64,000 nt of DNA from Candidatus Latescibacterota bacterium (GTDB lineage Bacteria; Latescibacterota; UBA2968; UBA8231). Position numbers and translations under genes: made by a program. The notes under the pieces were generated by a model. The model was not told the origin of the DNA, did no database searches, and saw only the letters and a list, made by a program, of their open reading frames with translations. The DNA is taken from NCBI GenBank assembly GCA_965261395.1, contig OZ253462.1:3904001-3968000 (forward strand), given 5' to 3'. This document shows, one piece after another, positions 1 through 19,884 of this stretch. Position 1 is the stretch's first letter. Every line of letters starts with the position of its first letter.

Positions 1-2437
1 CTTTGTCTTGGAGGATGGACGACCACGCCAACCAGCGACGAATCGCTTCATCCAGGTCCTGCAGGCGGGTCTGGTCCACGGCAAGGAAGACCAGCGTATT
101 GCGAAAAAGGCGCGGGGTGTTGCCGCGATTTTCGAGTATGGCGGTGGCTGCGGCCTGCGCCTTGCTGTTCGACCCGCTGCTGTGTGGGTGCTCAGTCCCT
201 AGCACCACCAGACGGGCCTCCATGTCGTCGGGGATATCAGCGCCGGATTGCGGCACCGTATGGATGCGCTGGAAGTCGCCCGTGGTGCGCAGGTCGGTGC
301 GCAACCGCTGCTCGATCTCGGCCACCACTGGCGCGGGATCGCGCCTGAATTGATCGGCCCGGTCTTCCGCCAGCTTGGTGACAGTCGGCTGCGTTGAGTA
401 CCAGTAGCGCGGGCCATCCTGATAGAGGAAGGTCGCCTGCGTGCTCAGGCGACGCAGGGCATCGCCAAAGATCGCTGGTGTTTCACCCGGCATTGCGCAG
501 CCGAGCTTGATCCGGCGGTCCTCAATGCCGCGATTGGCCACCGAGGTCGTCGGCGCGGAGCCGAGGTACACGGTGCGCGCTACCCGGCGAGTCGCGGAGA
601 ATTTGCCCAAGTTCGCTACCTCGCCGTCAATGCGCTGCGGCAGTGCATTCGGGCCATCGACATCCGCCTCGATGATCGGCGTCCAGTTGTCGGACAGATA
701 GCGGGTCAACTCGTTGCGGACGTGCGGGTCGTCGATGGGGATGTGTGCTGGCATGATCAGCGGGTTGCGGTCGCCGCGGTCCCACAGACTGTGGATGACG
801 GCGGCCATCAGACGCAGGACGCCGCGCGTGCGCTGAAACTTCACTAGCGCGGACCAGTCCGTGTAGAGCCGGTCGAAGACTTCTGGATGGATTGGATAGG
901 CAGCACGCAGGCGGCGCTCGTAGTCGGCGTCCCGGCATTCGGTAGGGAACTCCTGCTGCTGGGCGCGGTAGAAGTCGGCAAAGGTGCGTGAGACATTGTC
1001 GCGGGCCGTGAAATGCTCGCGCTCGCTCAAGGGTTCAAATAGACGGCGGCGCACGATCTCAAAGCCTTCTTCGGTACTCGCTGGCGTCCAGGAGGATTCG
1101 ACGCGGCCAATGACATTCTTGAGCCGCGACAGCGCCGCCCGGCCGCGGAGGCCACCGACTTCCTCGTCTTCACCTTGGGCATGGGGGGAGGTCGCCGTAT
1201 CCGATGACGGCAAGCTGATCACCAGCAGGCAATGGTTCGCCGCCCGCGCGGATTCGGTCAAGGTCTGGGCAAAGCTGAAGTGGGTTTCGAAACTGCCGGC
1301 TGGCAGGTCGGCGTCGTCGTGCAACTGGCGGGCGTAGGCGACCCATTCGTCGATCAGAATGAGACACGGCCCGTATTCGTTCATCAATTCGCGGAGGGCG
1401 TCGCCTGGGTTGGTGGCGCGCTCGTCGTCCTGCCGCACTTTGTCGAATGCCGCTTTGCCGCCGAGTTGCCAAGCGAGTTCGCCCCACAGTGTCCTGACCA
1501 CGGTGCCATCTTCCTTTGCCGACGGATTGCCGGGCGAGATCTTGTTGCCGACCAGCACGACCCGTTTGACATGGTCGGGCCGTGCGGCGATTTCGGCTGA
1601 TGCTATCAGGTCGTCGATACCCAGCAACTCGCCGGTTGGCATTCCTGAGAATAGATGGTACAGGGCTAGCATGGAGTGGGTCTTGCCGCCGCCGAAGTTG
1701 GTCTGTAGTTCCACCACTGGATCGCCGCCCTGACCGCTCAGCCGCTGCATCGCTCCGCTTAGCAGGCTCTTCAGGCTTTCCGTCAGATAGGTGCGGCGAA
1801 AGAACTCCGCTGGGTTGCGGTACTCGTCGGTTCCTTCACCGATATGGACCTGCCACAGGTCCGCGGCGAACTCGGCCTGCTGGTAGCCGCCGCTGGCCAC
1901 GTCGCGATGCGGGGCTACGACCTCGCGCCAGGGCTTCAGGCTGCCGGTGGCTTGGCTCTCGACGGTGTTGCCAGCGCCGCGCCGGCGTTCACTGCGCGCC
2001 TGCTCCTCAAAGATCAGACGGCGCAGTTCCATCTTCATGCGATTGACCTCGTCTGCTTGCGGCGCGGAAACGGCTGTCAGCAGGCGGGCGATAGAGTCGA
2101 GGGTGCGGTCGGCGTCGTCGCTGGAGAAGCTGTCTTGGTGCGCCCACTTGTTGCGCTGGTCGCGGATTTCGTTGACGAGGCTGCGCTCGGCACGGCCCAG
2201 TACAGTGCGGAACACGTCATTCCACGTTTCCCACATGAGCTTGAGAAGTGCGGCTACATCCCACTGGTCTATGGGCTTGTCGGTCAGGTGTGGATCATCG
2301 ACAAAGCGCCGGACGGTGTCCATGTGTACGCCACCGGCCTTGATTTTGTCTTGGACCTCGCGCTCGACAAATGGGCCAAGTCCGGCCTTGAGGAGTTCGA
2401 GTGCTTTGCCGACGCGTTCTTGATTGGTAATGGCCAT
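1..2437 (-). CDS. DUF499-family AAA+ ATPase with N-terminal Swt1-like HEPN domain (3' end runs off the window)
   Basis: Not in the ORF track; translated by hand from ATG at 2437: MAITNQERVGKALELLKAGLGPFVERE...RNKWAH (HEPN RxxxxH)...LKPWREVVAPHRDVASGGYQQAEFAADL...QTNFGGGKTHSMLALYH (Walker A)...LILIDEWVAY (Walker B). Confidence 0.9.
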   Translation of the reverse strand, partial: MAITNQERVGKALELLKAGLGPFVEREVQDKIKAGGVHMDTVRRFVDDPHLTDKPIDQWDVAALLKLMWETWNDVFRTVLGRAERSLVNEIRDQRNKWAHQDSFSSDDADRTLDSIARLLTAVSAPQADEVNRMKMELRRLIFEEQARSERRRGAGNTVESQATGSLKPWREVVAPHRDVASGGYQQAEFAADLWQVHIGEGTDEYRNPAEFFRRTYLTESLKSLLSGAMQRLSGQGGDPVVELQTNFGGGKTHSMLALYHLFSGMPTGELLGIDDLIASAEIAARPDHVKRVVLVGNKISPGNPSAKEDGTVVRTLWGELAWQLGGKAAFDKVRQDDERATNPGDALRELMNEYGPCLILIDEWVAYARQLHDDADLPAGSFETHFSFAQTLTESARAANHCLLVISLPSSDTATSPHAQGEDEEVGGLRGRAALSRLKNVIGRVESSWTPASTEEGFEIVRRRLFEPLSEREHFTARDNVSRTFADFYRAQQQEFPTECRDADYERRLRAAYPIHPEVFDRLYTDWSALVKFQRTRGVLRLMAAVIHSLWDRGDRNPLIMPAHIPIDDPHVRNELTRYLSDNWTPIIEADVDGPNALPQRIDGEVANLGKFSATRRVARTVYLGSAPTTSVANRGIEDRRIKLGCAMPGETPAIFGDALRRLSTQATFLYQDGPRYWYSTQPTVTKLAEDRADQFRRDPAPVVAEIEQRLRTDLRTTGDFQRIHTVPQSGADIPDDMEARLVVLGTEHPHSSGSNSKAQAAATAILENRGNTPRLFRNTLVFLAVDQTRLQDLDEAIRRWLAWSSILQDK

Positions 2438-2712
2438 GATTTTACTTCCTTATAAATAGCTCTTGGTCGCCGTGCGACTGATTGCACTCGTCCACGGTCC
2501 AATTCGAGTACCTTGGAGCCGAGGACGCAAACGAAGAAGTGAAGCATAGTCAGTATTTGCAAGTCTTGGCAATAGGACTTGATCTTAGAGTCAGAAAGGC
2601 CAGCGCATTCCTCTAGGGCAACGGCCTGTCGAGATGCGATTCGCCAATATCTTACGCCACCCCAGCAGCCATTGTATTTAGACAAGTAAAATCTAGTGTT
2701 TATTTTTGAAGT

Positions 2713-3228
2713 ATGAAGAAGCAAACAGCCGTTTTGGACACCTCATTTTGGGTTTTGGGCCATCGAGCGGATGTACTCGCCTCTCTGTTTCGCTTTTTTG
2801 CGGCCGTTGTCCCATCGGCTGTCCAGACTGAAATACGAGCCCGCGATCCGCGTTATACACAGCGGGTATATGGGTATCAAGAACTGTTTGGCCTGATGAA
2901 GCGGCAGGGAGTATTGGCCATCCGCGATCCTGTTCAGCCGTTGGACCAGTTCCACGCAGGAGAAGTAGCTGCTTTGGGGTTGGCGCTCGACGAGAATCTG
3001 TGGCTGCTGGTGAATGAACTGCGTGCTCTGCGCTTTGCTCGGCAGCGCGGCCTGTCAAGGCGCTGACCGTTCCAGAATTCACCGTATATCTATACGAAAT
3101 AGAAGTGCTGTCTTGGCACAGTGTCCACAGATAAGCTGGATAGGATCGCCGCGAATACTGGAACGGCTTTGATGGATGCGGCCCGCCAAGCCGTGCGGAG
3201 CTTGGCCGAATCCCGAGGAGACCTATAG
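2713..3228 (+). pseudogene. PIN-domain protein (DUF3368-like) with two apparent compensating frameshifts
   Basis: AVLDTSFW...EI...HAGEVAALGLA...LLVNELRALRFARQRG is PIN-like. A plausible continuation KALTVPEFTVYLYE follows in another frame after ~3055 and returns to the first frame after ~3129, ending at TAG 3226-3228. Confidence 0.55.
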
Positions 3229-4032
3229 AATGAGTCCTCACAGCAGATGAAAGAGCATAGGGAGTCTAACCGACGACGGTATTCAAGTCGGTCAAGATTT
3301 TATCTACACAGGTTTTACTAAAACCTGTATCGTAATACGTGTAACTATCTTTATTAAAGGGAATAAGAGAGGGAGGCTCTTCATCTTTACATATAACATG
3401 CTTACGGACATCAGGGAGATTGTCGGAAAGGATTTCATTAATATACGGATCACGGAAGGCATACCCGACGAAGATTGCTACATCCGCCCTAAGTGCGGTC
3501 TTCCGTAGATGATCATGGAACATAATAAAAGGTTCTTCTTGGGGCCTTCCTTTAAGTCCTGGATACAAAACTGCTTGTTTTTTTTCATCCCCGGTATAAA
3601 CGGGACTTTGGACAATAGTACCGTCGCTGTTGCGCTGCCAATTCACTGATCCATGCAGCTTGGTCAGCCGCCCGTGACCGTTAATGGATGTGCCGGGACT
3701 ATCCCAAACAGTTGTATCTATGATCGTCTCATAATCATGATGCCTGATACCGTCCTCTATATCTATCCCATACTTTTTGATCGTACTTTCCAATACCAAG
3801 TCATAGTTTGTCGTGAAAATCTCAACAACGGGATCCGAAGATTGGAGATCCTTGAGAAAACGTGCCCAATTGGTTAATTGGTTCTTGTCAGGACGATGTG
3901 TGTATAGATTATGTACTAGGCTATTGATGCTATTTCTTAGATATAAACACTGGTCACTGAAAGATTCTCTATTCCTAATTATAGATTGAGTTTCAGACAC
4001 AGAGGCACCGAATTGAGCGGCCAAGTTATTAA

Positions 4033-4964
4033 GAAGCCGTCTGAAAACCCTTGCTGTAGCCGGTATTTGAATCGGCGTACTCATCGAGCCATATTCAGGT
4101 TTCGCGACAAAATCTGAACAGAAAGGCTCGTATGATGAGTACGCCTAGTAGGCAATATGCCACCGATGTAACCGATGTGCAATGGCGTCGGATCGAACCG
4201 TTGCTGCCGGCTTCGACATGGCAGCCGAACGGTCCGGGTCGGCCACCGCGGGATCGACGCCAGATCGTCAACGGCCTTTTGTATCTGACCAAGACCGGTT
4301 GTCCTTGGGCTTTGTTGCCTTCTTGTTTTGGACCGTGGAAAACGGTGTATGATTACTTTCGTCGCTGGAGTCTACAAGGGGTCTGGCCGCAGGTATTGGA
4401 TCGACTCACCCAGCGGGAACGCCGCCTCAACGGACGGGCTCCAACGCCGTCGGCTGGCGTAGTCGATAGTCAGACGATCAAGACGGCAACCCATGGTAAA
4501 ACAACCGGTTATGACGCCGGAAAAAAGGTCAAGGGGCGCAAGCGTCATCTGTTGGTCGACACCTCGGGCTTGCTTAGACAGGTGGTGGTCACCGCCGCCG
4601 ATGTAGAGGATCGGGACGGCCTCAAGCAGGTGTTGACCCGCTTGGGGGCCTCCGGCGTAGCCCGGTTACGCAAACTGTGGGGCGATGGCGGCTATCGAGG
4701 CGATCCGATCCGAACGTGGGTGGCTAACGTAAAAAAGACGCACAAAATAGACTTGGAAGTCGTCGCCAAACAAGGCCCCGGCTTTGAGGTGTTACCACGC
4801 CGTTGGGTCGTCGAGCGCACGTTTGCGTGGTTGATGAATTTTCGCCGACATGCCCGAGATTATGAGGTGTTGACCCACCATAGCGAAGCCTTGATCCAGA
4901 TTGCTATGATCCACTTGCTGCTCAAACGGATCAAATAGAAAAAATATAGTTTTCAGACGGCTTC
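4033..4964 (+). mobile_element. IS5-family insertion sequence (IS1031-like), 932 bp
   Basis: Perfect 16-bp terminal inverted repeats GAAGCCGTCTGAAAAC (4033-4048) and GTTTTCAGACGGCTTC (4949-4964). Flanks are TAA and TCA. Confidence 0.92.
4132..4938 (+). CDS. IS5-family DDE transposase
   Basis: YATDVTDVQW, TGCPWALLP, VVDSQTIK, KGRKRHLLVDTSG, WGDGGY and RWVVERTFAW motifs. Confidence 0.95.
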   Translation: MMSTPSRQYATDVTDVQWRRIEPLLPASTWQPNGPGRPPRDRRQIVNGLLYLTKTGCPWALLPSCFGPWKTVYDYFRRWSLQGVWPQVLDRLTQRERRLNGRAPTPSAGVVDSQTIKTATHGKTTGYDAGKKVKGRKRHLLVDTSGLLRQVVVTAADVEDRDGLKQVLTRLGASGVARLRKLWGDGGYRGDPIRTWVANVKKTHKIDLEVVAKQGPGFEVLPRRWVVERTFAWLMNFRRHARDYEVLTHHSEALIQIAMIHLLLKRIK

Positions 4965-5400
4965 TCAGCATATTATTACTCATCATCCACCCCATTATAC
5001 TATCGGGATTAAGTGTGGCATCAAAGGTTCTATTAAAATCATCAATAGTCCACAGAACATCCTCGATGTCAATAAGACTTTCTTTCTTTTGGGCTTTAAG
5101 GAATTCATGGATAAAATTATACAAAGCGTTGTTCTTTACGTCTTCTGGAAGACGTTTGAAGAACTCGATAGTGGTAGGGTAATTTTTGGAATCTACAGAA
5201 GCGGAGCTTCCTGCGCCTGCGAAGACTAGAATCATTCTAATTATCCTTGAATTTGGTGGTTCTGACTAAGACGGTTGACGCAAGCAATTTGCAGCGTGAG
5301 ATCAACGGCGTCAAGAGGGGTGTTACTGCAACTCGGTCCGGCCCAATAGGTTGGACCTTGACATCTCAGACGCGTTTTCTTCAACTTCGTCGGATTCGTA

Positions 5401-5646
5401 TTAACACAACGTAACGAACTCGTCGCCTTCGACTTTACCAATAATTTTATCGAACGAAATATTGCCGTCGTCTGATCGAAAAGCCCAAAGCCGTTCGACA
5501 ATGGCACTGGGATATTCTACAGAAACCATTAATTCCAGCGTTATCTGTCCTTTTTTAGAAATTTCAAGCGTCCCAGAGAGTACATTTTCTTCCTCGCTAG
5601 GCAGCCAAAAATATCCATGCCTTTCAATGGAAGCTGCGAGTCGCAT
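5401..5646 (-). pseudogene. Truncated ApeA N-terminal-domain (HEPN/ApeA-like) gene fragment
   Basis: GYFWLPSEEENVLSGTLEI...ITLEL...IIGKVEGDEFVTL resembles the ApeA_NTD1 start. It stops after 81 aa. Confidence 0.6.
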
Positions 5647-5652
5647 AATTCA

Positions 5653-5817
5653 TTATCCTAAATTAGCCTGTGAATCGAGATCGACGGTAATGGTAATCAC
5701 TGGGCGATCCAACTTGGACAGCATCGAGGCAGTATGATATATCAAAGAGGTTTTCCCTACGTCTTCCTTGTTATTGAAGAAGGTCAAGACAGGTGTACTC
5801 CTGATCGTATCCGTCAT
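5653..5817 (-). pseudogene. ParA/Soj-family ATPase N-terminal stub (54 aa)
   Basis: Hand translation MTDTIRSTPVLTFFNNKEDVGKTSLIYHTASMLSKLDRPVITITVDLDSQANLG*, a decayed FNNKGGVGKT...DLDPQANL. Its start overlaps the DUF6615 stop (ATGA). Confidence 0.75.
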
Positions 5818-6707
5818 TCCGTCATCCCCTCGACCAAAAGGAGATGACCGGGCAATCCCTCGGTCGGGGCATCTGATGCTTGCACTTTCCTTGTCTCTAA
5901 CATTATAGAATCCCGCCGTAATTCCTTATGCCGTAATCCCTCATGCCGCAATATCTCATGCCGTAACCTCTCAACATCTTCATCCGATAGCTTTGCGTCA
6001 TCTCGGGACCACAGCCATTCCGGCCAGCCACCGTCAACCGGTTCGAAGTGTACCCAGTCATAGTTTTGCAAGTCATCTACATCTAATGGTAGAAATGACC
6101 CGAGAAATGCGGACAGGCTACGGGAGGAGGCGGGCAGGAAGCGGTGGTCGCGGCCCTGCCGGCAGTCAAAAAGGCAACGCCAAGGCAATGCGGCGCATGA
6201 TGTATGAATCGAGTCAAAGTTCCTAGTTCTAGCCCGGATCGCTTGGCGAATATTCCAGCTTGGCACCAAAGTACAACCTAGTTGCCTTTCGTCGGGACAC
6301 CGACAGCAATGCCAATATGGTTGTATCTTGTGCCGGGCCACGTAGTTGTACAAAAGATAAAGTGGGATGGCGCGTACGCTCCGGGAGTACGTCTCAAGGA
6401 TGTCTATCTGAGATTTCGCTTTGGCGTCGAGACGATAACGCCCCTCGGTTTGATATAGCTTCTTGGCTTGCACTGCAAATGCTGCGGCTCGGTTGCCACC
6501 GGCGTGAATCCGGATTTCCAGATCGGTACCTCGTCTCGATTCCTGACTTTTAGTGCTTTGAAATAGCCTAGTACGACCCTCCATTGAACGTGTGAAATCC
6601 AAAATGAGTAGATCAGTAAGCGTCTCCTCTCCCAACCGGACTTGCACGTCCCATGACTGTTTGAGCCTTCCCCATGTATCCTCTGCGATTTGTTCAGCGG
6701 GGGTCAT
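5814..6707 (-). CDS. DUF6615-family protein (putative PD-(D/E)xK-type nuclease)
   Basis: GEETLTDLL...ESRRGTDLE...AVQAKKL...QIDIL...PLYLLYN...GC motifs. Confidence 0.7.
   Translation of the reverse strand: MTPAEQIAEDTWGRLKQSWDVQVRLGEETLTDLLILDFTRSMEGRTRLFQSTKSQESRRGTDLEIRIHAGGNRAAAFAVQAKKLYQTEGRYRLDAKAKSQIDILETYSRSVRAIPLYLLYNYVARHKIQPYWHCCRCPDERQLGCTLVPSWNIRQAIRARTRNFDSIHTSCAALPWRCLFDCRQGRDHRFLPASSRSLSAFLGSFLPLDVDDLQNYDWVHFEPVDGGWPEWLWSRDDAKLSDEDVERLRHEILRHEGLRHKELRRDSIMLETRKVQASDAPTEGLPGHLLLVEGMTE
5907..5966 (-). repeat. 4 x 15-bp in-frame tandem repeat (LRHEI-LRHEG-LRHKE-LRRDS)
   Basis: Plus-strand units agaatcccgccgtaa / ttccttatgccgtaa / tccctcatgccgcaa / tatctcatgccgtaa. Confidence 0.8.
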
Positions 6708-6718
6708 CTTCGATGTGC

Positions 6719-6778
6719 TTAGTTTGTGTGCCGCTCAAGCCAGCGGCGAGCTTCGTCAACGAGTTCAGGGTCGTTCAT
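6719..6778 (-). pseudogene. Probable HEPN-domain toxin N-terminal stub (19 aa)
   Basis: MNDPELVDEARRWLERHTN* overlaps the MNT 3' end, as HEPN partners do. The ARRWL start is typical of HEPN proteins in MNT-HEPN pairs. Confidence 0.45.
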
Positions 6779-7087
6779 AGAGAACCTTTCCTTCGCGGAG
6801 AGCTGAACGCAATGCGGTTCCCACAAGGTGCCCGCGACTAGCGACTTCCTCGGGAGTCGCTACTACTATGTCCTTGCATACTGGCAGATCGCCCAAGGCC
6901 CGACGGATCTCGATAGCCGTGTGCCGCTTGTCGGACACATTGGGCAGAATTACGAGTAGGTCAACGTCGCTTCATTCGGTTGCCGTGCCCCGTGCATGAG
7001 ATCCGAAGAGGACGACCTGCGAAGGCTGGAAGCCTCTCACGATGCGGTCCACCATAGTTGATATAAACGTTTCCGATGCGGCCACAT

Positions 7088-7091
<4 letters not shown>
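6765..7091 (-). pseudogene. Minimal nucleotidyltransferase (MNT antitoxin) with internal TGA
   Basis: MNVAASETFISTMVDRIVRGFQPSQVVLFGSHARGTATE*SDVDLLVIL...REGKVLYERP. GS...DxD motif, premature TGA at 6972-6974, ATGA overlap with the methylase stop. Confidence 0.85.
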
Positions 7092-9991
<2,900 letters not shown>

Positions 9992-9995
<4 letters not shown>

Positions 9996-10543
9996 TTGCA
10001 GACGGCCAAGAGGTTCGAGTTTGTAGTCAAAACCTCAATGCCGCCAGACGTGAAATCGCTGTCATTCGTAACCAGCTTCCAGCCATTGCGGCGACATGTT
10101 TCGGCCAGCAAGCCATCGTTGAAGTCAGTCGCTCCCGCTGCAAAATTAGCCAGCACTTGGGTGATATTGGCCGCAGCAAAAGGGTGATCGTGGCAGGCAC
10201 AGAGCTTGAGCATAGAGCGTGCAAAAACCGCTGCACCTTTGCCAACCGCCTTGAAGGCCGCCGATTTGCGGAATGATTTGAATCGAGGATACTGTTTCCG
10301 ATGCCGGACCTTCCATTCAATACGGCAGTAGGTGTTCAGATACTCACTGAGCACCATAGCGTCCATGATCAATTCGGCACCTACAGACTGCATGGATTTT
10401 AACCCGTTGCTATATTGCGCGAAGAATTTGCTCTTGCTTGTGGATGGCGGCGGATACAGGTAGAGCCACACGTTAGCATCGAGCAAGAACGTTTCGCCAC
10501 AGCTAAACGAATAGGCCGCCAGATCGTGCGCCTTATTCTTCAT
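9992..10543 (-). CDS. PIN-domain ribonuclease
   Basis: FLLDANVWL...LSEYLN...TDFNDG...LVTNDSDF supplies the acidic PIN tetrad. Start taken as MKNKAH at 10543; its stop overlaps the methylase ATG. Confidence 0.85.
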
Positions 10544-10907
10544 CGCCCAGTTCCTCCTGCCATGCCCGGTCAAAATCCTCGGGCCTGCTGAAATACGCCT
10601 TGGCGTTATAGACGACGTGCGTGAGCATTTCGTGGTCGTCAGCAGCCAAGTCGCGGAAGAAAAGCAACTCGTCAATGCGATCCTCGGACAGCTCGCCGTA
10701 GAGCTGGCCTACCGCCGCGTTCAGAAATGCAGAGATAAGGATATCCACCCGCTCGAAGGAAAGGACAACCGGCGTCCCCGCCTTTAGGAGCGGAGCGATC
10801 TTGTCGTGCAGATGCTGGCCGTCGCTGGCGGATACGCACAGGGGACCGCCGATAATGTCAAACACTTGCACAGTAATTGGTTCAGTCACGGTTTCACTCT
10901 TTCTCAT
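10533..10907 (-). CDS. STAS-like (DUF4325) protein
   Basis: CVSASDGQHLHDKI...VVLSFERVDILISAFLNAAVGQLY is a typical DUF4325/STAS-like pattern with Ser at the anti-anti-sigma phosphosite position. Confidence 0.8.
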   Translation of the reverse strand: MRKSETVTEPITVQVFDIIGGPLCVSASDGQHLHDKIAPLLKAGTPVVLSFERVDILISAFLNAAVGQLYGELSEDRIDELLFFRDLAADDHEMLTHVVYNAKAYFSRPEDFDRAWQEELGDEE

Positions 10908-11780
10908 TTAAGACACGTCGTCCGTGTCGATCTCACTCTTCAAGACGTAGACTCCCTCATCGGCCGTATTGATCCCAATCGTTACGGCAGTTCCGGGGAA
11001 GTCTGCCTCCATCTTCGCAAAGCTTTCCTTGTCGCAGTTCAATTCGTAAAACCCGAAGCGAGAGGCGATCTGAATCTTCCCTCCATTAAGGCGGGCGAAT
11101 TTCTGAAGAAACTCAAGGCCTAGCCCACCGGGGTGAGGGCCACGCTTCGTGGTGTTAAGCGGCTTGAGTGCCCATTTAAGAGCCGGGAGGGAACTGATAC
11201 GGGTATCATTGAAGTAACGACGGACGGTCTCGCGGATTCCGATACCGACATCGGCGATAGTAAAGTCGAGACGATGCTGTTGCGGGAAGAATTGGCCACA
11301 GACAAAGACGCCAAGTTCTGATTCGGAATGGACGACGGCATTCTGATAAACCTCAAAGACCTTTTTCTTGAAAACTCGGCTCGCTCCTTCGGACATCCTA
11401 GGAATACCTCTGCCGCTGAGTTGCCGATGGATATATTCCTCGAACTCGCCTTCGTCACTAAGGCGCAGATGGCGAAAGGGCATCGTTATGCGGTCAGAGT
11501 CATCGAGTGATTCATACCAATAATTGGTTAAGAACCGATTTTTCCGAAGTACCTGTTCCACCTTGTCAGGAACAGCAACGATCTTCACGATGTTGAATTT
11601 GTCAGCCACCTGGGCAAGAATCGCCCCTAGGGGTGCAGCCATGTTGGCGTCGAAAAACGAAACCCGCGACATATTGAGTTGCAGTCGGTCGGCAAAGAGA
11701 CCTTCGGCCGCTTTGGCGAGAGCACCGATGCTCTCGAAGCCTTGGCGGTTACTATGCAAGGTTGGTAGGTAATGGATCAC
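10908..11780 (-). CDS. N-terminal STAS-like domain plus GHKL (HATPase_c) ATPase/kinase
   Basis: LNMSRVSFFDANMAAPL (STAS-like), EVYQNAVVHS (N box), IADVGIGI (G1), GGLGL (G2), FPGTAV. No HisKA His, no TM segment. Confidence 0.85.
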   Translation of the reverse strand: MIHYLPTLHSNRQGFESIGALAKAAEGLFADRLQLNMSRVSFFDANMAAPLGAILAQVADKFNIVKIVAVPDKVEQVLRKNRFLTNYWYESLDDSDRITMPFRHLRLSDEGEFEEYIHRQLSGRGIPRMSEGASRVFKKKVFEVYQNAVVHSESELGVFVCGQFFPQQHRLDFTIADVGIGIRETVRRYFNDTRISSLPALKWALKPLNTTKRGPHPGGLGLEFLQKFARLNGGKIQIASRFGFYELNCDKESFAKMEADFPGTAVTIGINTADEGVYVLKSEIDTDDVS

Positions 11781-11923
11781 TGCGGCACCGTGGTCGCGAA
11801 GAACTTTGGTCTAGCTGACGGATCGTTGACCATCTGCGCAAAAATCACTGCCGACGCCGACGCCGCGTTGATGGCGTCGAGCGGTAAGGCGACTTCGATA
11901 AGCTTTTTACGGTGCCTAGTCAT
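11777..11923 (-). pseudogene. Duplicated, internally deleted 5' stub of the DUF1156 methylase (48 aa)
   Basis: [39 protein letters not shown] matches the start of 9995 but lacks the [15 protein letters not shown] segment. Its stop overlaps the GHKL start (GTGA). Confidence 0.85.
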
Positions 11924-12194
11924 TTTCGATCTACCATTTTTCAATAATTCACTCTTAGTGCGAGTTCGGGCGTTAGCGCCAGCGTGAAGTATCTGCCAGT
12001 TCTTGCATATGCCGTTCCGTTTTTCCGATCTTCGGCAGCCAGCCCGGCAGGACAATAGACAATATCAGTAGGCACGGCTTGTCGTCAGGTAGCGGGCTAG
12101 CAATCAGTTGCCGCCTATTGCTGCCGGCCCGCTCGCGGGAACCAATAATCTTATTATAAGATATGATGTGATGCTTTAGAATGCTCCGCCCACC

Positions 12195-12989
12195 TCAAAC
12201 CCTCCCAGGAAACGACCGTCCCCGCACCTGCTTAAAGGGGGGCATCTTAGGCGCGTCGGTGACCGCCTCGTCGCGCCAAGAAGCCGCGCGCATGTAGTGC
12301 ACGGCATAGCCCCTGCGCCGCGTGCCGGTCCGATTGGCATTGCTCTGGTGCAGCGTCAGGCTGTGGTGGAAGCTGATGCTGCCGGGGCGGAGGGTAGCGG
12401 GCCGGATGGGCCAGCCGTCGCTTTCCAGATCGGCGACAAAAGGAGCCAAGCGCTCGCCCCGCAACATGCCCCAGCGGTGAGTGCCCGGGGCAAAGTTGAG
12501 GCAGCCGTTGTCGAGGGTGGCCGCGTCAATGGCGGTCCAGGCAGAGACCAAATCCATGGGGAAAATATCGCGCCAAGAGGCCGAGTCCTGGTGCCAGCCC
12601 TGAGCCGTACCCGTGCGCGGAGCTTTCATAAAAAGCTGATCGCCATACATCTTGATGTCGTCGGTGCTGAGCAAATCAGCGGCGATGTCGGCGATTTTGG
12701 GGTGGGTGACGTGGGCCCACATCACGTCGTCGTACACTGCTATGTTGTACAATTTGCGCACGGCCAGCACTTGGTCGGTGACCGCTTTTTCGCCGCGACG
12801 GAAGACGGGTTCGAGCTGGATGCTGGTGTCGGGGATGTGGTCTAGCTCGCCGGCGGCAATGCGGTCGGTATGGGCCGCTAAAGCGGCTACCTCGTCGGGG
12901 GTCAGCACATCTTCGACGGTCAGACAGCCGTCGAGTTGGAAGCGCTCTACTTGGTCAGGGGTGAGGTGACGCAGGTTTTGTTGGGTCAC
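12195..12989 (-). CDS. Phytanoyl-CoA dioxygenase (PhyH)-family Fe/2OG dioxygenase
   Basis: WHQDS...AWTAIDAATLDNGCL...PGTH...HHSLTLHQSNANRT. Confidence 0.9.
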   Translation of the reverse strand: MTQQNLRHLTPDQVERFQLDGCLTVEDVLTPDEVAALAAHTDRIAAGELDHIPDTSIQLEPVFRRGEKAVTDQVLAVRKLYNIAVYDDVMWAHVTHPKIADIAADLLSTDDIKMYGDQLFMKAPRTGTAQGWHQDSASWRDIFPMDLVSAWTAIDAATLDNGCLNFAPGTHRWGMLRGERLAPFVADLESDGWPIRPATLRPGSISFHHSLTLHQSNANRTGTRRRGYAVHYMRAASWRDEAVTDAPKMPPFKQVRGRSFPGRV

Positions 12990-13017
12990 GAGACGGTCTC
13001 CTCCTTCAGTATAGACT

Positions 13018-14202
13018 GGCTTTGGTGCATGAATTGGTGTTTTTTTCGGTTGATCGGTTGAATAAAAACAGGCTCCTCAGTAGATTGAGCACGACTTTCG
13101 CCAAAAAACCCATGCTTTCTCGTCCAAGGAACCTGTCATGGCCAACCTATCGTCTTGCCCCTCTTCCGTCAAGCCTGGTCGCTCGCCTCGCCGTCGCTCC
13201 AACGTCGTGTACCGGGTACGTAATTGGGCCGACTATGAGGCCGGGCTGCAACAGCGCGGTAGTCTGACGGTGTGGTTCACGCCCCAGGCCGTCGAAGCTT
13301 GGTATTATCAAGGGCCGCCTCAGCGGGGGGCGCAATATACCTTTTCGGAGGTCGCCATCCAAACGGCGTTGACGCTGCGTCTTTTGTATCACTTGCCCCT
13401 ACGCCAAACCGAGGGGTTTGTCGCTTCGGTGTTGGCCCTGATGGGCTTGGATCTGCGGGTGCCCGATCACACGACCCTGTCGCGCCGTCAGGCGGGTTTA
13501 GCCGTGGCGTGGCCGCCCCAGCGGGGAGACCAACCGATGCACTTGGTGGTGGATTCGACCGGGCTGAAAGTGTATGGCGAAGGCGAATGGAAGGTGCGTC
13601 AGCACGGCTGGAGCAAGCGGCGCACGTGGCGCAAATTGCACCTCGGGGTTAATGAAGCCACCGGCGAGATCGTCGCGCAGACCTTGACGACGAATAGCCA
13701 CGATGATGCGGGGCAGGTGGAGCCGTTGCTGGCACAGATCGAGGCCCCCGTGGAGGCGTTGGGCGGCGATGGGGCCTATGACAAACGCAAGGTGTTCAAG
13801 GCGTTGGCCGCGCCCGAGCAGGGGGCACCTATTCATCCGATCATTCCGCCGCGCAAGGACGCCAAAATCGAGCAACATGGCAACACCAACGCCGAGCCGT
13901 TGCCCCGCGATGAGACGATTCGAGCCATCCGCAAACGGGGCCGTCGAGGTTGGAAACACGAGAGCGGCTATCATCGACGCTCGGTAGCCGAAACGCAGAT
14001 AGGCCGCTACAAACAGATACTTGGTGACACCTTGCGCACCCGAACCCTAACCAACCAACAGACCGAAGCGCGGTTGGGCTGTGCCTTGCTCAACCGGATG
14101 CGGGCGTTGGCGAAACCTGAGTCCTATCCGCTAACCAAAAAAGCGTAAATCACACGCGAAAGAAGCCAACACGGCCCCGACCGGTTTTCATGCAACAAAG
14201 CC
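13018..14202 (+). mobile_element. IS5-family, IS903-group insertion sequence, 1185 bp
   Basis: IRs GGCTTTGGTGCATGAA and TTCATGCAACAAAGCC (15/16 match). Perfect 9-bp target duplication GTATAGACT at 13009-13017 and 14203-14211. Confidence 0.95.
13138..14148 (+). CDS. IS903-group transposase
   Basis: YRVRNWADYEAGLQQRGSLTVW, PDHTTLSRR, VDSTGLKVYGEGEW, RTWRKLHL, GDGAYD and GYHRRSVAET motifs. Confidence 0.95.
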   Translation: MANLSSCPSSVKPGRSPRRRSNVVYRVRNWADYEAGLQQRGSLTVWFTPQAVEAWYYQGPPQRGAQYTFSEVAIQTALTLRLLYHLPLRQTEGFVASVLALMGLDLRVPDHTTLSRRQAGLAVAWPPQRGDQPMHLVVDSTGLKVYGEGEWKVRQHGWSKRRTWRKLHLGVNEATGEIVAQTLTTNSHDDAGQVEPLLAQIEAPVEALGGDGAYDKRKVFKALAAPEQGAPIHPIIPPRKDAKIEQHGNTNAEPLPRDETIRAIRKRGRRGWKHESGYHRRSVAETQIGRYKQILGDTLRTRTLTNQQTEARLGCALLNRMRALAKPESYPLTKKA

Positions 14203-15085
14203 GTATAGACTGATAGTTCTCCGTCCAAGCTTTGAGCGGGATATCCTCGTCTTGGGGCCGCCAATAACGCGACACCGGCAGCACCAAGGGATCGTCGCCC
14301 GCATAGGCCGTGCTGCCGGTGCCCAACTCGCCCAAAAGCTGACGCCGCACCGGGTCGCACCCTGCCAAGACGTCCGGGGCTTGATGCTCGTAATCCGAGG
14401 GGCGGATCCAGCGGTGCTGATAGCCATAGTACAGGCATTTGCGCGGTTGATCGGACAGATTGGGGGTCAAGCAGTGGTACAGGGCCGTGCGCCATACTAG
14501 CGCGGTACCGGGGGCGACGTTGACTTCGACAATGCGTTTGGGATCGACGCGGCGCGCATCCTCGTCAATCCACGGCGATTGGCGATGGCTGCCGCGCACA
14601 ACGCAAATGGCACCGCTTAAAGGTTGGGTCAGGTCGGTCAAATAATAGCCGACTTTCATCTCCATAAACGGCAGCACCCCATCGACCGCGGGCCAGCCGT
14701 AGTTGGGGCCGTCGGCGTGCCAAGGGAAAAAACTGTCTGGGGCACCTAGCTCGTGCTCGCCGTCGGCGGGATCCTGCGGCGGGCGCACGTCGAGGTGCGA
14801 TGTGCGGAGCTGGATATTGTAGCCCATCAGGTCCACAACCAGCGGCAAAATGGGTGGATAGTCCACCAATTCCTTAAAGAGGGAGTTGGCGGCGATATTG
14901 CGCATTTGAAAGGCTTGGCGGGGACCGATATTGCGCTCTTGGCGGTAGCGGTCGTACAACTCGTCGAGCCGTTGCAACAGCGCGGCGATGTGGTCGGGCG
15001 GCAGGGCGTCTTCGACGAGGAAGAAGCCGTCTTCGTCAAATTGACGCTGCTGTTCGGGGGTGATTTTTAAGGAGGGTTTGCTCAT
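14150..15085 (-). CDS. PhyH-family dioxygenase (last ~7 codons replaced by IS sequence)
   Basis: WHADG, GAICVVRGSH and LYHCLTPN. The original end QSILKEETVS* lies left of the IS. Confidence 0.88.
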   Translation of the reverse strand: MSKPSLKITPEQQRQFDEDGFFLVEDALPPDHIAALLQRLDELYDRYRQERNIGPRQAFQMRNIAANSLFKELVDYPPILPLVVDLMGYNIQLRTSHLDVRPPQDPADGEHELGAPDSFFPWHADGPNYGWPAVDGVLPFMEMKVGYYLTDLTQPLSGAICVVRGSHRQSPWIDEDARRVDPKRIVEVNVAPGTALVWRTALYHCLTPNLSDQPRKCLYYGYQHRWIRPSDYEHQAPDVLAGCDPVRRQLLGELGTGSTAYAGDDPLVLPVSRYWRPQDEDIPLKAWTENYQSIRLCCMKTGRGRVGFFRV

Positions 15086-15104
15086 TGGACGATCCTTTAA
15101 GACG

Positions 15105-15902
15105 CTACTTCCAGATGCAAAAGCCGCCGTCCACCACCAAGTTGTGCCCGGTGATATAGTCGGCGGCGGGCGAGGCCAAAAAGCGCACCGCTCCCTTCAG
15201 GTCCATGCCGTCGCGGCCCATGCGGCCCAAGGCGGTGGCTTCGCTATAGGCGTCTATAAAAGCTTGGGGCTGGCCGCGCTCAAAGCCACCAGGCGAAATG
15301 GCGTTGACCCGCACTCCCATCGGAGCCAAATAGGCGGCCGCGTCCATCGTCAGACCGATGACGCCGGCTTTGGCTGCGGCGTAGTCCACCGGTTGCGGCC
15401 GCAAGCCGCTGCGCTGGTACATGCGGCGATCGCGGCCCACCAGACCGGCGATGGAGGCGATATTGATAATAGACCCCGAGCCTTGGTCGGCCATGATGCG
15501 GCCGAAGATTTGGCAGGAGAACAGGGGGCCGGTCAGATTGGTGTCGATGAGCAGGCGGGCATCTTCGGGCTTGCGCTCGAACAGGTCGGTGGTGCTCAGC
15601 TCCAAGCCGCCGCCGGCGTTGTTGACCACCACATCGACGCGGCCTTGCCACTGGCGCACGTCTTGGGCGAATTGGCTGAGGGCGGCGTGGTCGCAAATGT
15701 CGAGGGCGGCGTGGTACACCTCACAGCCATAGGTCTTTTTGAGATGCTCTGCTGTGGCTTGGGCACTGGCTTCTTGGCGCGAAGTAATGGCCAGATGGCA
15801 ACCGGCGTCGGCTAGGCTTTCGGCCATGTCGCGGCCCAAATCGCGAGCCCCGCCGATTACCACGGCAACTTGGCCGGTCAAGTCGAAAAGTTCTGTGCTC
15901 AT
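15105..15902 (-). CDS. Short-chain dehydrogenase/reductase (gluconate 5-dehydrogenase-like)
   Basis: GGARDLG, VNNAG, YAAAK, NAISPG. Confidence 0.92.
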   Translation of the reverse strand: MSTELFDLTGQVAVVIGGARDLGRDMAESLADAGCHLAITSRQEASAQATAEHLKKTYGCEVYHAALDICDHAALSQFAQDVRQWQGRVDVVVNNAGGGLELSTTDLFERKPEDARLLIDTNLTGPLFSCQIFGRIMADQGSGSIINIASIAGLVGRDRRMYQRSGLRPQPVDYAAAKAGVIGLTMDAAAYLAPMGVRVNAISPGGFERGQPQAFIDAYSEATALGRMGRDGMDLKGAVRFLASPAADYITGHNLVVDGGFCIWK

Positions 15903-15949
15903 GGGGATGCTCCTGGCACGGGGCAATATAGGCGTCTAAAGGTGGGGAA

Positions 15950-17404
15950 TCAACCAGATGAAGGCTCCTGAAAGGTCATTGCCGGCCGCTGCTCCCAGCG
16001 GCATTGGTCGGGCGCGTTGGTCTGTTGGGCCCAGTCGCGGATCAAGTCGATATCCGCCAGCCGCTCCTTTAGCCGTGCCGCGACCCGGGCCGGGTCCCAC
16101 CCGTCCAAGACCAAGCTGGTCAACTCGGCCACCAACTCCCGGCACTCCGGGTCTGCGGCCCGGTCCACTCGCTCTTGGGGATCCTCTGCTAGGTTGAACA
16201 ACTGGGGCCGCTCCTGCCAATGGTAGATCAGCTTCCACGGCCCGCGCCGCACCATGCGCTGCACTTGGCCCTCGCGCAGGGCGTATTCCGAAAAGGCCGT
16301 ATCCGACCAATCGCCACGGCCCGTGCGCAGTAACTCCAGCGCTGGTCGCCCCGGCGAGTTGGGTAAGGGCGGGGCACCTAGGGCTTGGAGCATGGTGGCG
16401 TTGATATCCAAGGCGCTCATGACTCGGTCGCAGCGCGTCCCAGCCGGCAAGACGCCGGGCCAGGAGACAATGGCCGGTACTTTGACCGACTCTTCGTAAA
16501 AAGTCCGCTTCATCCACAAGTCGTGCTCGCCGATCGAATCGCCGTGATCCGAGCTGTACACTACCAGCGTGTTGTCGGCCAAGCCATTTTCCCGTAGGGC
16601 CGTTAAAATACGGCCGATCATGCCGTCCATTGCGGCGACCAAGGCCCAATAGGCGGCCCGGGCGTTGAGCACCCATTCCTCGGGCACATCCTGCACCTTG
16701 CCGTGGGCTCGCCACCAGCGGATTGCCGGATGGAGGTGATCGCCAAAAGGCTCGCGCACTGCGGGCGGTTGAATTTTCGCTCGGTAGTAATCGTACAGGG
16801 GTCGCCGCGCCAAATAGGGAGAATGCGGCAGCATAAAGCCGATGCTGAGGCTGAAAGGGCCTTCGGCTTGACCGGCGCGTTTTTGCACACCCAGCCGATT
16901 TAAGAAGTACACGGCCGCTGCGGTTACGTCCTCGTCGTGTACTTGGTATGCGCTCTGGCCCGGCCCGGCCTTCTTCAGATTGTTGCGGCCAATGGCCGGG
17001 GCGACCCCCAAGCCGGGCCAATTAGAGCAGTGGTCGCCCACCGGCCTTGCGGCATAGCCGTGCAACTGGTCGGGACCTATGGAGTGCATGCGGCCGATCA
17101 GCACCGGTCGGTATCCGGCCGCCCCCATGGCGTGGGCCATCGTCGGCACCCCCGAATTGAGGATCTGATTGTTGGTCCACACTTCGATGTCGCTGGGGTA
17201 GCGTCCCGCCAGCATGGCCATGCGCGAGGCCACGCATACCGGCGACGGGCAGTACACCTGAGAGCATTGCACGCCCTCGGCGGCGAGGCGGTCCAAATGC
17301 GGCGTCTCCACCACTGGATCTCCGGCGCAGCCCATGACGTAGGGATTGTGCTGGTCGGAGTGGATGTAGAGTAGATTGGGGCGCGGGTTGGGTGATTGCT
17401 GCAT
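15950..17404 (-). CDS. Sulfatase (choline-sulfatase-like S1 family)
   Basis: PNLLYIHSDQH, CVASR (CxAxR), GRMH, PHSPY, SDHGD, W-MK-FYEES. Confidence 0.9.
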   Translation of the reverse strand: MQQSPNPRPNLLYIHSDQHNPYVMGCAGDPVVETPHLDRLAAEGVQCSQVYCPSPVCVASRMAMLAGRYPSDIEVWTNNQILNSGVPTMAHAMGAAGYRPVLIGRMHSIGPDQLHGYAARPVGDHCSNWPGLGVAPAIGRNNLKKAGPGQSAYQVHDEDVTAAAVYFLNRLGVQKRAGQAEGPFSLSIGFMLPHSPYLARRPLYDYYRAKIQPPAVREPFGDHLHPAIRWWRAHGKVQDVPEEWVLNARAAYWALVAAMDGMIGRILTALRENGLADNTLVVYSSDHGDSIGEHDLWMKRTFYEESVKVPAIVSWPGVLPAGTRCDRVMSALDINATMLQALGAPPLPNSPGRPALELLRTGRGDWSDTAFSEYALREGQVQRMVRRGPWKLIYHWQERPQLFNLAEDPQERVDRAADPECRELVAELTSLVLDGWDPARVAARLKERLADIDLIRDWAQQTNAPDQCRWEQRPAMTFQEPSSG

Positions 17405-17420
17405 CGAGAAGCGTCCTCCT

Positions 17421-18545
17421 TTATAGAGACAAACGAGCCCAGCACACTTCCATGCAGGCGTCGTCGCCAGCGTAATAGACGACCATGACATCGCCGTCGG
17501 GCAGGGCCGCGGCAAAGGGCAGACCAAAACTCCACAGGCCCATTTCGGCCAGCAGGTCGCCGGTGTCTCCTTGGCCGGCAGCGGTTTGCGAGGATTCGAC
17601 TGTTTGACGGTATAGTTCTACTTCGGTGTCCGCGGCAAAAGGGGCGTCTGCCGCCGGGGCTAGACGGGCGCGGATCGAGTGCGATTGAAAGCGATCGACC
17701 CAAGCCAAGACCACGCGGCCGTCGGGCAAAATGGCTGGATGCGCGGCCTGATCGGGAAAACCGAGATCATCGGGGGCGGACCAAGTGGCCCCTTCGTCCG
17801 TGCTGAGGTGGCGCTGGATATTGAGGTACTGGGTCGTCTGCCGGTCATAGGTCCAGGTGAAGGTGACCACGCGGCCGTCGGGGCAGACGCCAGCGCGCTG
17901 GTCCCAGTTGAAGATGCGGCCGGTGGGGTCCTGGCAGGTGGTGACGGGATCGCCCCAGGTCTGGCCCTTATCTTCTGAATACAAATACACCACCCGTTGC
18001 AGCCACTGGCCCTGGTCCCAATAGGTTTTATTGCTCTCGATGCTCAAGGCCAGCCGGCCGCTGGGCAGGACGAGTACGGGGTTGGTCAGGCTGGGCGGGC
18101 CAACATCCGGGGGGACGGGCACGACGCGCCAGTCGGACCAGGTGAGTCCTAGGTCGTGGGAATCGGCTAGGACGATCTCCATGGGCAAGCAGCCTTCAGT
18201 CTCGTCGTTGAAAAGGGGTTGGCCCGGATAGGTCTGGCGGTCAACCCACAGGGCGGCTAGCAACAAGTGGCCGTTGCCCAAGTCAGTGATATAGCCCACC
18301 CGGAGCGAGCCGTTCAGCCCGTTTAAGGTCGTGGCAAAAGGGGTTGCGGGTGTGCTCCAAGATTGCCCGCCATCGTCCGAGCGCTTCAGTTCGAGCGTGC
18401 CGTTCGCCGAATCCTTGGTGCTGCCGACTCGGTAGGTGGCCAGTAGCGAGCCGTCGGCTAGGGGGGTGAGCGCGGGAAAGGTCGAAAAGGCGCGCGGCGT
18501 ATTGGGCTGACCGCGGTTGATGCTGCCGCGATTGATAATTTTCAT
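17421..18545 (-). CDS. BNR-repeat sialidase-like beta-propeller hydrolase
   Basis: Asp-boxes SDDGGQSW, SHDLGLTW, SEDKGQTW and STDEGATW. Confidence 0.85.
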   Translation of the reverse strand: MKIINRGSINRGQPNTPRAFSTFPALTPLADGSLLATYRVGSTKDSANGTLELKRSDDGGQSWSTPATPFATTLNGLNGSLRVGYITDLGNGHLLLAALWVDRQTYPGQPLFNDETEGCLPMEIVLADSHDLGLTWSDWRVVPVPPDVGPPSLTNPVLVLPSGRLALSIESNKTYWDQGQWLQRVVYLYSEDKGQTWGDPVTTCQDPTGRIFNWDQRAGVCPDGRVVTFTWTYDRQTTQYLNIQRHLSTDEGATWSAPDDLGFPDQAAHPAILPDGRVVLAWVDRFQSHSIRARLAPAADAPFAADTEVELYRQTVESSQTAAGQGDTGDLLAEMGLWSFGLPFAAALPDGDVMVVYYAGDDACMEVCWARLSL

Positions 18546-18666
18546 TTTACTACTCCAAGTTAGTCGTTTCTCATTGTGCGGAGCGTGTGTCTTATTATTC
18601 AAAGAGGCCGGGGTATAATAGCGATACTCGGGATGGCTGGACAATGTCCTAAAGAGGAGAACAGCG

Positions 18667-19851
18667 ATGCAGCAACCCCATTACAATAAAGACCTAGACG
18701 TCCGCCAGATAGGACCGGAAGATTTACCTCGTGCCCGCCTAGTGGCCGGACGCGCCTTTATGGAACACGCCGAAGATTGGTACGGGGAGGATGAGACGAC
18801 GCTGGCTGGCTTTGATGGGGAGGGGACTTTGGTGTGCGCCTTGGGCTATCAGCTCGAATCGTTGTGGTGGGGTGCGGCGCAGATTCCGGCTGGGGCTATA
18901 GGTGGGGTGGCCACGGATCCCAAGCATAAGCGGCGCGGTCACGCCGGTGGGCTTATGGTGCGGGCCATTCACATACTGCGGGCACGCGGTTGCTGCATCA
19001 GCCCGCTGTGGCCTTTTTCCTTTAGGTGGTACGGCAAGTTCGGTTGGGCTTGTCCAGCGCCGAGATTGGAACTGAAAGTATGGCCGGATCTGGTGCGCCA
19101 AGCTACGACGGAGGTCGGGACGGTGCGGCGGGCGACCGCGGAGGACACAACCGCCGTGCATCGGCTGCACACCGAAGGGGCGCAATTGCGCAATGGGCAA
19201 TCGGTGCGCTCGGAAGCGTTTTGGCAAAAGGAGGAGATACAGCGCGAGCTTTGGGTGCTGGAGGGGGACGGTGGAAGAGTGGATTGCTCCGCCCTGATCG
19301 AAATAGGGGATTTGGCGCGCGCCGAGGGCAAACGCATTACCGTGCGGGAGCTACATGGGGCCTCTTTCGCCGCCCAATTGAAGCTCGTGCGGTCCTTGGC
19401 CGATATGGATGGGGTAGCCGCCCTGAAGCTTGAACTACCGCCCGATAGCTTGTTGCTCCACGCTTTCCCAGAGCGCTTTGATGTTGTCGTGGAGTACGAC
19501 TTGGCGCTGCGAGTATTGGACGTGGGCCAAGCTCTGGCGCATCTCAAGCCGCCTGAAAATCTGCGGGCGACGGTTGCGTTTGAAGTGGCCGATTGGGTGG
19601 TGAGTGCCGATAAGCCGCTGGCAGTGACAGTCCAAGCTGAAGGGGGTCAAGTGGAGGTCGCGGCCAAGGCAGACAAAGACGCGTTGCGCTGCGATATTAA
19701 AACCTTCACCCAATTGTTTGCCGGCGGCTTGACCGTGGCCCAAGCGCGGGCCATGGGGCGTTTGACCGGCGGTAGTCTAGCGATGGGGACGGCCTGCGAT
19801 GCGTTGCTGCACGGGCGCGTACCGTACCGCTCCGATATCGAGGCAGGGTAG
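18667..19851 (+). CDS. Eis-like GNAT acetyltransferase with C-terminal SCP2-like domain
   Basis: IGGVATDPKHKRRGHAG, LWPFSFRWYGKFGW, LRVLDV..AL. Confidence 0.88.
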   Translation: MQQPHYNKDLDVRQIGPEDLPRARLVAGRAFMEHAEDWYGEDETTLAGFDGEGTLVCALGYQLESLWWGAAQIPAGAIGGVATDPKHKRRGHAGGLMVRAIHILRARGCCISPLWPFSFRWYGKFGWACPAPRLELKVWPDLVRQATTEVGTVRRATAEDTTAVHRLHTEGAQLRNGQSVRSEAFWQKEEIQRELWVLEGDGGRVDCSALIEIGDLARAEGKRITVRELHGASFAAQLKLVRSLADMDGVAALKLELPPDSLLLHAFPERFDVVVEYDLALRVLDVGQALAHLKPPENLRATVAFEVADWVVSADKPLAVTVQAEGGQVEVAAKADKDALRCDIKTFTQLFAGGLTVAQARAMGRLTGGSLAMGTACDALLHGRVPYRSDIEAG

Positions 19852-19884
19852 GGCTGAACGCATAACTCACGGGAGGACAAGATT

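Follow-up and report, generated by a model that had tools for sequence, protein, structure and literature searches.

An intact, distant member of the VapKSC toxin-antitoxin system at the head of an Hma operon in a Candidatus Latescibacterota bacterium

The window that we analysed is a stretch of 64,000 nucleotides from a Candidatus Latescibacterota bacterium (GenBank assembly GCA_965261395.1, contig OZ253462.1, positions 3,904,001 to 3,968,000 of the forward strand). Coordinates below are positions in the window unless a locus or genome is named. Three adjacent genes on the minus strand (9992..11780) encode a kinase with its own STAS domain, a STAS-like protein, and a PIN-domain ribonuclease (RNase), and they form the first three cistrons of an Hma defence operon. 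We conclude that this trio is very probably a functional VapKSC module, that is, a kinase-regulated three-component toxin-antitoxin and anti-phage system, with its activity carried over from the characterised system of Escherichia. The window copy is a distant, intact, environmental member of that system. We base the identification on the architecture of the trio; on the homology of VapS and VapC to solved proteins; on the conserved phospho-site, PIN acidic residues, and ATP-binding motifs of the kinase; and on the strict retention of the trio in other genomes. An earlier reading of this DNA (the original prediction) had proposed, from the sequence alone, a phosphorylation-gated PIN toxin, and knew of no named system with such an architecture. 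The gating has since been demonstrated at the bench for the homologous Escherichia operon, which the window proteins match (PMC13373217), so the call was sound. The absence of a name no longer holds: a system with the same architecture is now described as VapKSC (Chambers, Rani, Min, Villa, and Corbett, EMBO J 2026, PMC13373217; bioRxiv version of 2026-02-05). The match to an already characterised system removes the novelty of the prediction and leaves its functional claim standing.

The first gene, vapK (10908..11780, minus strand), starts with GTG and encodes a 290-residue STAS plus GHKL (SpoIIAB-like) protein of the serine-kinase type. It is followed by vapS (10533..10907, minus strand), for a DUF4325/STAS antitoxin of 124 residues with an acidic C-terminal tail and a predicted phospho-site at S59, and by vapC (9992..10543, minus strand), for a PIN-domain RNase toxin of 183 residues whose ATG lies at 10543. 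The junctions are as tight as originally described, and all of them can be read in the sequence. The TAA of vapK (10910-10908) is directly followed by the ATG of vapS (10907), vapS and vapC overlap by 11 nucleotides (10543..10533), and vapC shares an ATGA (9995..9992) with the next gene, the DUF1156 methylase gene hmaB. The GTG of vapK itself overlaps the stop codon of an upstream remnant open reading frame (ORF), as GTGA. The vapK product has 506 homologues at E ≤ 0.001. The GTG start is right, because 100 of the 120 homologues listed are exactly 290 residues long and most cover 100% of the query. The vapC ORF could be extended to a TTG at 10675; its homologues begin at the MKNKAH position, which is the ATG at 10543. 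A scan of 9800..12400 for promoters and terminators found 0 sites of either kind, which is uninformative for this phylum.

A literature search for the name VapKSC found only the work of Chambers et al. In their definition, the operon encodes VapK, a STAS-GHKL kinase that resembles CapK; VapS, a STAS protein whose C-terminal region is short; and VapC, a PIN nuclease of the VapC-like kind. They counted 289 such operons (PMC13373217). The characterised system comes from Escherichia sp. E4736, and its VapS and VapC form a 2:2 complex in the crystal structure (PDB 9z7o). Escherichia VapC is toxic and the D28A variant is not. VapS neutralises VapC, and the rescue is abolished by S48E or by deletion of the C-terminal region. 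With the whole operon, cells were protected against phage Bas42 by about 2 logs; VapC D28A, VapS S48A, and VapK F54A each abolished this protection (PMC13373217). The association of PIN with DUF4325 had been catalogued earlier: Matelska et al. (2017, PMC5499597) list a PIN subgroup (PIN.4) that is "transcriptionally coupled to DUF4325", with function unknown, and the window's vapS-vapC pair resembles this entry by its description.

For the window's VapS and VapC, the Escherichia proteins are the best and essentially the only matches in the PDB. As a single sequence, VapS matches 9z7o_A (Escherichia VapS) with E = 7.1e-11. A VapS family profile, built (like the other family profiles) from the loci found in this analysis, matches the same chain with E = 2.8e-22 over positions 12-123 of 125, and this is its only significant PDB match. 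S59 of VapS lies opposite residue 66 of 9z7o_A; this is S48 of the native protein (116 residues), provided that the 134-residue chain is extended by 18 residues at its N-terminus. VapC matches 9z7o_C (Escherichia VapC) over its full length, with E = 3e-4 as a single sequence and E = 2.4e-14 as a family profile, and no other PDB match of the profile reaches E ≤ 0.1. Residue D22 of VapC lies opposite residue 28 of 9z7o_C, the catalytic D28. Pfam places DUF4325 in VapS (E = 3.5e-13) and PIN in VapC (E = 1.8e-7). The serine that had been noticed at the STAS phospho-site (in ISAF) is S59, and the acidic tetrad noticed in the PIN protein (D22, E67, D143, and D161) is present.

VapK had been described as a GHKL protein with a STAS-like N-terminal domain of its own and no transmembrane segment, and four lines of analysis agree with this. 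In the AlphaFold2 model (pLDDT 91.1, pTM 0.90), a beta-alpha STAS-like domain (residues 2-105) is followed by the GHKL domain. In a Foldseek search with this model, catalytic domains of histidine kinases are ranked, and the best compact superposition is with SpoIIAB (1tid_C; TM 0.76 on the target, root-mean-square deviation 2.8 Å). PF13466 (STAS_2) or PF02518 is precomputed on many homologues of VapK. No hydrophobic segment of VapK is strong enough for a transmembrane helix (the maximum Kyte-Doolittle mean over 19 residues is 1.34). VapK also has no N-terminal helix-turn-helix (HTH) domain, as the model begins with a STAS strand at residue 2.

To see how the trio is kept in other organisms, we used a scan of one genome per species, which gave 44 loci, and the best 80 of 246 loci from a metagenome scan. 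Because both scans started from peptide patterns of the VapK subfamily to which the window belongs, the fractions that follow are biased and are not a census. Every one of the 44 genome loci has VapS after VapK and VapC after VapS; among the metagenome loci that could be evaluated, the counts are 77 of 78 for VapS and 61 of 62 for VapC. The order K-S-C in 44/44 and 61/62 evaluable loci is therefore an arrangement far beyond chance, and the trio is conserved elsewhere, which had been named as one of the points on which the original prediction could fail. The exception is a metagenome contig with the order vapS-vapC-vapK (L131, 1923..3935). All three proteins are covered to at least 90% in single frames in 30 of the 44 genome loci, and about 9 of the 44 are clearly broken (L002, L022, L025, L035, L040, L041, L042, L044, and L045). 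An equal trio (ATP-binding, STAS-like, and PIN) is annotated by RefSeq on plasmid P5 of Deinococcus gobiensis.

The residues expected to carry the mechanism are conserved in these loci, as counted after broken rows were dropped. The position of VapS S59 holds serine in 40 of 42 sequences and threonine in the other 2. The four acidic residues of VapC (D22, E67, D143, and D161) are invariant (40/40). In VapK, N147, D177, and G218/G219/G221 are found in 39 of 39 sequences, and G179 and G181 in 38 of 39. At VapK position 42 (F42 in the window), 35 of the 39 sequences have an aromatic residue (phenylalanine in 24 and tryptophan in 11; serine in 3 and valine in 1). F42 may be the putative aromatic residue that binds single-stranded DNA (ssDNA), corresponding to Escherichia F54 and CapK W68, and the preference for phenylalanine or tryptophan fits such a site.

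By homology to the Escherichia system, VapC (the PIN RNase) would be held inactive in a complex with VapS (the STAS-fold antitoxin), whose C-terminal helix would reach towards the active site of VapC. VapK, the SpoIIAB-like GHKL kinase with an N-terminal STAS domain, would be switched on by ssDNA that arises from DNA damage or phage infection. The activated kinase would phosphorylate the conserved serine of VapS (S59 in the window), and phosphorylated VapS would release VapC, which would then cut RNA, arrest growth, and limit the spread of phage. For the window organism, toxicity, binding, phosphorylation, the ssDNA trigger, and phage protection are thus all expected from the results in PMC13373217. 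The original prediction had framed the mechanism as partner switching. A kinase that phosphorylates a STAS protein and thereby gates the PIN protein survives from that proposal; however, the STAS protein is itself the antitoxin that binds the PIN protein, and the kinase is not known to swap partners in the way that RsbW and SpoIIAB do.

Several observations weigh against assigning the window's trio to VapKSC and against carrying over its function. First, the window's VapS and VapC share little sequence identity with the characterised proteins, and the single-sequence match of VapC reaches just E = 3e-4. Second, VapK is less clearly placed than its partners: as a single sequence it had 0 matches in the PDB, its family profile gave weak, sub-significant matches (E from 0.016 to 0.29), and Pfam finds HATPase_c with E = 2.4e-4 and 22 bits, below the cut-off of 26.4 bits. 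Its probable homology to Escherichia VapK is drawn from the architecture and the linked partners. Third, neither VapS nor VapC has a model in PADLOC v2.0.0, where VapK gets only a weak DrmA-like match. Fourth, the ssDNA trigger of the Escherichia system was itself derived from CapK and from an AlphaFold 3 model rather than biochemically, as VapK was insoluble (PMC13373217). Finally, the Hma operon around the window's trio is damaged, and the closest relative (L002) has lost part of vapC, so such copies can decay. A predicted complex of VapK and VapS scored 0.30 and 0.27 against a mark of 0.32, which is evidence neither way.

Compared with known systems, the trio is closest to VapKSC. As in type II VapBC systems, a PIN RNase toxin is paired with a protein encoded immediately upstream that neutralises it. 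In contrast to VapBC, the window's antitoxin has a STAS fold, and release would occur by phosphorylation instead of proteolysis; Pfam finds only DUF4325/STAS in the upstream protein and no DNA-binding antitoxin domain (AbrB, RHH, PHD, or HTH). With SpoIIAB-SpoIIAA and RsbW-RsbV, the trio shares the fold of a GHKL serine kinase (the 1tid_C superposition above) and a STAS substrate with a serine on helix 2. It differs in that the window's kinase carries its own STAS domain and in that the STAS protein, not the kinase, would hold the effector. Neither a sigma factor nor a PP2C phosphatase is among the Pfam matches of the 26 ORFs scanned in 1..30615. Escherichia VapKSC shares the aligned phospho-serine and catalytic aspartate; it differs from the window's module in that the two are distant homologues, the window's host is an uncultured environmental bacterium, and the window's module is translationally coupled to the methylase gene of an Hma operon.

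This last feature recurs in relatives. We scored the context of vapKSC in the 96 loci with both flanks readable. HmaA is encoded upstream and HmaB downstream, on one strand, in 48 of them (16 genome and 32 metagenome loci); of the others, 44 lack both genes, 1 has just HmaA, and 3 have just HmaB. Between HmaA and VapK, the gap is 0, which corresponds to the geometry of an ATGA overlap, at 9 of 17 junctions in genomes and 33 of 40 in metagenomes; between VapC and HmaB, it is 0 at 10 of 19 and 21 of 33 junctions, respectively. These gaps were computed from envelope coordinates of hidden Markov models and are approximate. In a FastTree phylogeny of VapK (117 rows, with 8 partial rows dropped), the window belongs to a clade of 68 rows (support 96) in which 55 of the 63 scored rows are linked to Hma, while in the other large clade 7 of 33 are. 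Hma linkage requires at least 7 state changes on this tree, versus 30 in shuffles. Elsewhere, vapKSC lies between a type I specificity gene (hsdS) and hsdR (L033 and L037), between a type III-like methylase and a BPTD_3080 or type III endonuclease (L045, L112, L114, L126, and L135), or beside BREX genes (L012 and L036), and several loci lie among housekeeping genes. Roughly half of the relatives sampled are thus built directly into Hma operons, gene against gene, and others are part of type I or type III-like restriction-modification (R-M) operons.

We did not find this conserved context in the main texts on VapKSC or on Hma, whose supplements may tabulate such adjacency. Chambers et al. place 36% of vapKSC operons no more than 10 kb from another immune gene, and Hma, DUF1156, and methyltransferase are absent from their text (PMC13373217). 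For Hma, 66.5% of loci are reported to carry insertions between hmaA and hmaBC, among them Septu, PARIS, and Ppl (PMC11232893); PIN, STAS, HATPase, and DUF4325 are absent from that main text. The system was renamed Type-1 BREX-related (BR) in PMC12839542, which notes that BREX and BR loci have "backup" RNases of the HEPN, PIN, and Schlafen types nearby and whose main text lacks STAS and GHKL. Neither main text names vapKSC among the Hma inserts.

These linkages raise the possibility that vapKSC is wired into Hma and R-M-like systems as a second layer. Nicking and unwinding of invading DNA by the restriction system, or of self DNA when methylation fails, would make the ssDNA that activates VapK, so that restriction that is under way or has failed would lead to growth arrest by the RNase. 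The 48 loci flanked by HmaA and HmaB, with junctions that are often at gap 0, speak for such a scheme, as do the Hma-linked VapK clade and the copies within type I or type III-like operons or beside BREX. HmaA is a helicase-nickase that defends against T4 (PMC11232893), and damage generated by R-M systems has been proposed as the trigger of the related CapK (PMC13373217). However, unrelated defence genes are known to insert at a hotspot between hmaA and hmaB (PMC11232893), so the linkage may be hitch-hiking. Also, 44 of the 96 loci have no Hma neighbour and several are among housekeeping genes, in a sample that is biased to the window's VapK subfamily. We therefore put this idea forward tentatively and consider it somewhat unlikely. 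If it is true, a DNA-restriction layer is chained to a suicide layer via an ssDNA-sensing kinase, and the linkage offers a concrete, testable example. It would also suggest a natural trigger for VapK, which Chambers et al. could not test biochemically (PMC13373217).

The distribution of the module bears on another explanation. VapK is accessory in both the phylum and the genus: with the window's genome included, 14 of the phylum's 168 genomes have it, as do 6 of the 31 from the genus, and no second VapK or VapS was found in the host genome. The trio has a G+C content of 0.528, versus about 0.61 in its flanks. A scan of IMG/VR with the VapK alignment gave 0 confirmed loci from 43 pattern matches. 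A tblastn search of phages and plasmids gave one full-length plasmid match (Deinococcus), two phage records that cover at least 80% of the query, and no Escherichia match. The patchy distribution and the lower G+C content, along with the toxin-antitoxin architecture, would suit a mere addiction cassette that stabilises the defence island by post-segregational killing and has no role in phage defence in this host. However, a plain addiction module needs no sensor kinase, and the motifs of the kinase are conserved here; also, the homologous operon protects E. coli against phage and needs the putative ssDNA site of the kinase to do so (PMC13373217). A pure addiction cassette is thus quite improbable, and we favour a defensive VapKSC module.

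The state of the host operon bears on whether the trio is still active. The operon runs vapK-vapS-vapC-hmaB-[cargo]-hmaC-hmaA, and its membership in Hma follows from HmaA (Snf2 helicase), HmaB (DUF1156 methylase), and HmaC (DUF499 ATPase) being encoded together. The hmaB gene (7088..9995, minus strand), for the N6-adenine methylase of Hma/Type-1 BR, is in two pieces, 9531..9995 and 7088..9703 (PADLOC HmaB, E = 0 and 4.4e-47). It is broken by a +1 frameshift near 9717, where it has one extra base relative to the intact hmaB of L002. An assembly error was ruled out by contigs of four runs. The extra base is in contigs of runs X1 and X5, which come from two studies (X1 may be the source sample), and it is absent in X6 and in part of X7. 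The frameshift is a real strain-level mutation that is polymorphic among public runs. In L002, hmaB is intact and vapC has lost its 3' part by a 249-nucleotide deletion (L002 7514..7516, corresponding to 10016..10264 in the window). The window shows the opposite, a broken hmaB next to an intact vapC; with a single pair, the contrast is an anecdote.

The real frameshift, the broken cargo next to it, and the roughly 9 of 44 genome loci with a broken member of the trio could suggest that the island is decaying and that the window's trio survives in it as a silent relic. However, all three of its frames are intact and every family-invariant residue is kept. In addition, the stretch 9943..12100 is identical in the contig of X1 and differs by 3 letters in X5. 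We consider a relic very unlikely. The original prediction had set an intact module among mostly decayed cargo; this is correct for the frameshifted hmaB, the split SIR2 gene, and the ApeA-like and ParA-like fragments described below, but not for hmaC and hmaA, which are intact.

The least credible alternative, which we rejected for its missing HTH domains, is that VapK and VapS form a DNA-damage-responsive transcriptional switch for the Hma operon, as CapK and CapS do, with the PIN gene as a passenger: like capKS, the pair immediately precedes an immune operon in the same orientation, and VapK is described as CapK-like (PMC13373217), but CapK has an N-terminal HTH and CapS is a winged-HTH repressor, whereas VapK lacks an HTH, VapS has no winged helix (no HTH family matched its 124 residues of STAS and acidic tail in a Pfam scan) and has VapS as its only significant PDB match, and the PIN gene is kept in 44/44 and 61/62 loci. 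What VapKSC and CapK/CapS share is a STAS-GHKL kinase that phosphorylates a conserved serine of a STAS partner, an ssDNA trigger (a proposed one for VapKSC), and a place upstream of immune operons; the predicted output in the window is a PIN toxin.

The rest of the operon resembles Hma/Type-1 BR as known from PADLOC, PMC11232893, and PMC12839542, with HmaB, HmaC (HEPN-DUF499), HmaA (Snf2 helicase-nuclease), and the known insertion hotspot for defence genes. It differs in its B-C-A order, in the position of vapKSC before hmaB, and in the frameshift of hmaB. The hmaC gene (HEPN_Swt1 plus DUF499 ATPase, minus strand, HmaC E = 1e-277) occupies 2..2437 and runs past the left edge of the window to a total of 1112 codons (ORF end at L046 5031). 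Directly after it, just past the left edge, lies an intact hmaA (G000 3899569-3903084) with no stops and 79% identity to the copy of L014. A second HmaA gene, at a different place in this genome (G000:C1:5671196-5674717), is likewise 79% identical to the L014 copy.

Between hmaB and hmaC there are 4.6 kb of variable, mostly decayed cargo (2438..7087). It includes a DUF6615 gene (5814..6707), a remnant of a ParA/MinD-like gene (5653..5817, 54 residues), a remnant with the N-terminal domain of ApeA (ApeA_NTD1; 5401..5646, 81 residues), and a SIR2-type gene in two parts (3266..4084 and 4792..5235; PADLOC Aga_SIR2, 1.7e-25). The SIR2 gene was apparently split by an insertion sequence, as a transposase gene of the IS4/IS5 family (4132..4938) lies inside it.

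Upstream of vapK is a decayed remnant of another hmaB 5' end (11777..11923, minus strand, 147 nucleotides), which retains the N-terminus of DUF1156 (2.5e-4) with an internal deletion. Its TGA is the stop codon that overlaps the start of vapK, and an equal remnant precedes vapK in L002 and L003. Synteny between the window and L002 starts inside this remnant, at 11852. Remnants of the hmaB 5' end that flank cargo were also seen at L002 5729..6004, L003 5774..6004 and 7747..7881, L005 7746..7922, and L006 7744..7998. The flanking remnants and the start of synteny suggest that recombination at the conserved 5' end of hmaB swaps the cargo. The same hotspot holds an ABC-ATPase gene like PD-T4-4_A/AriA, with a small partner gene, in L007, L008, and L010 (about 8526..10576, after vapC) and in L002 (3808..5810, before the remnant).

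On the other side of the trio, 12195..25447 contains four genes for PhyH-family dioxygenases (12195..12989, 14150..15085, 19885..20634, and 24419..25447). Among them are genes for a sulfatase, a BNR-repeat protein, and another DDE transposase (13138..14148).

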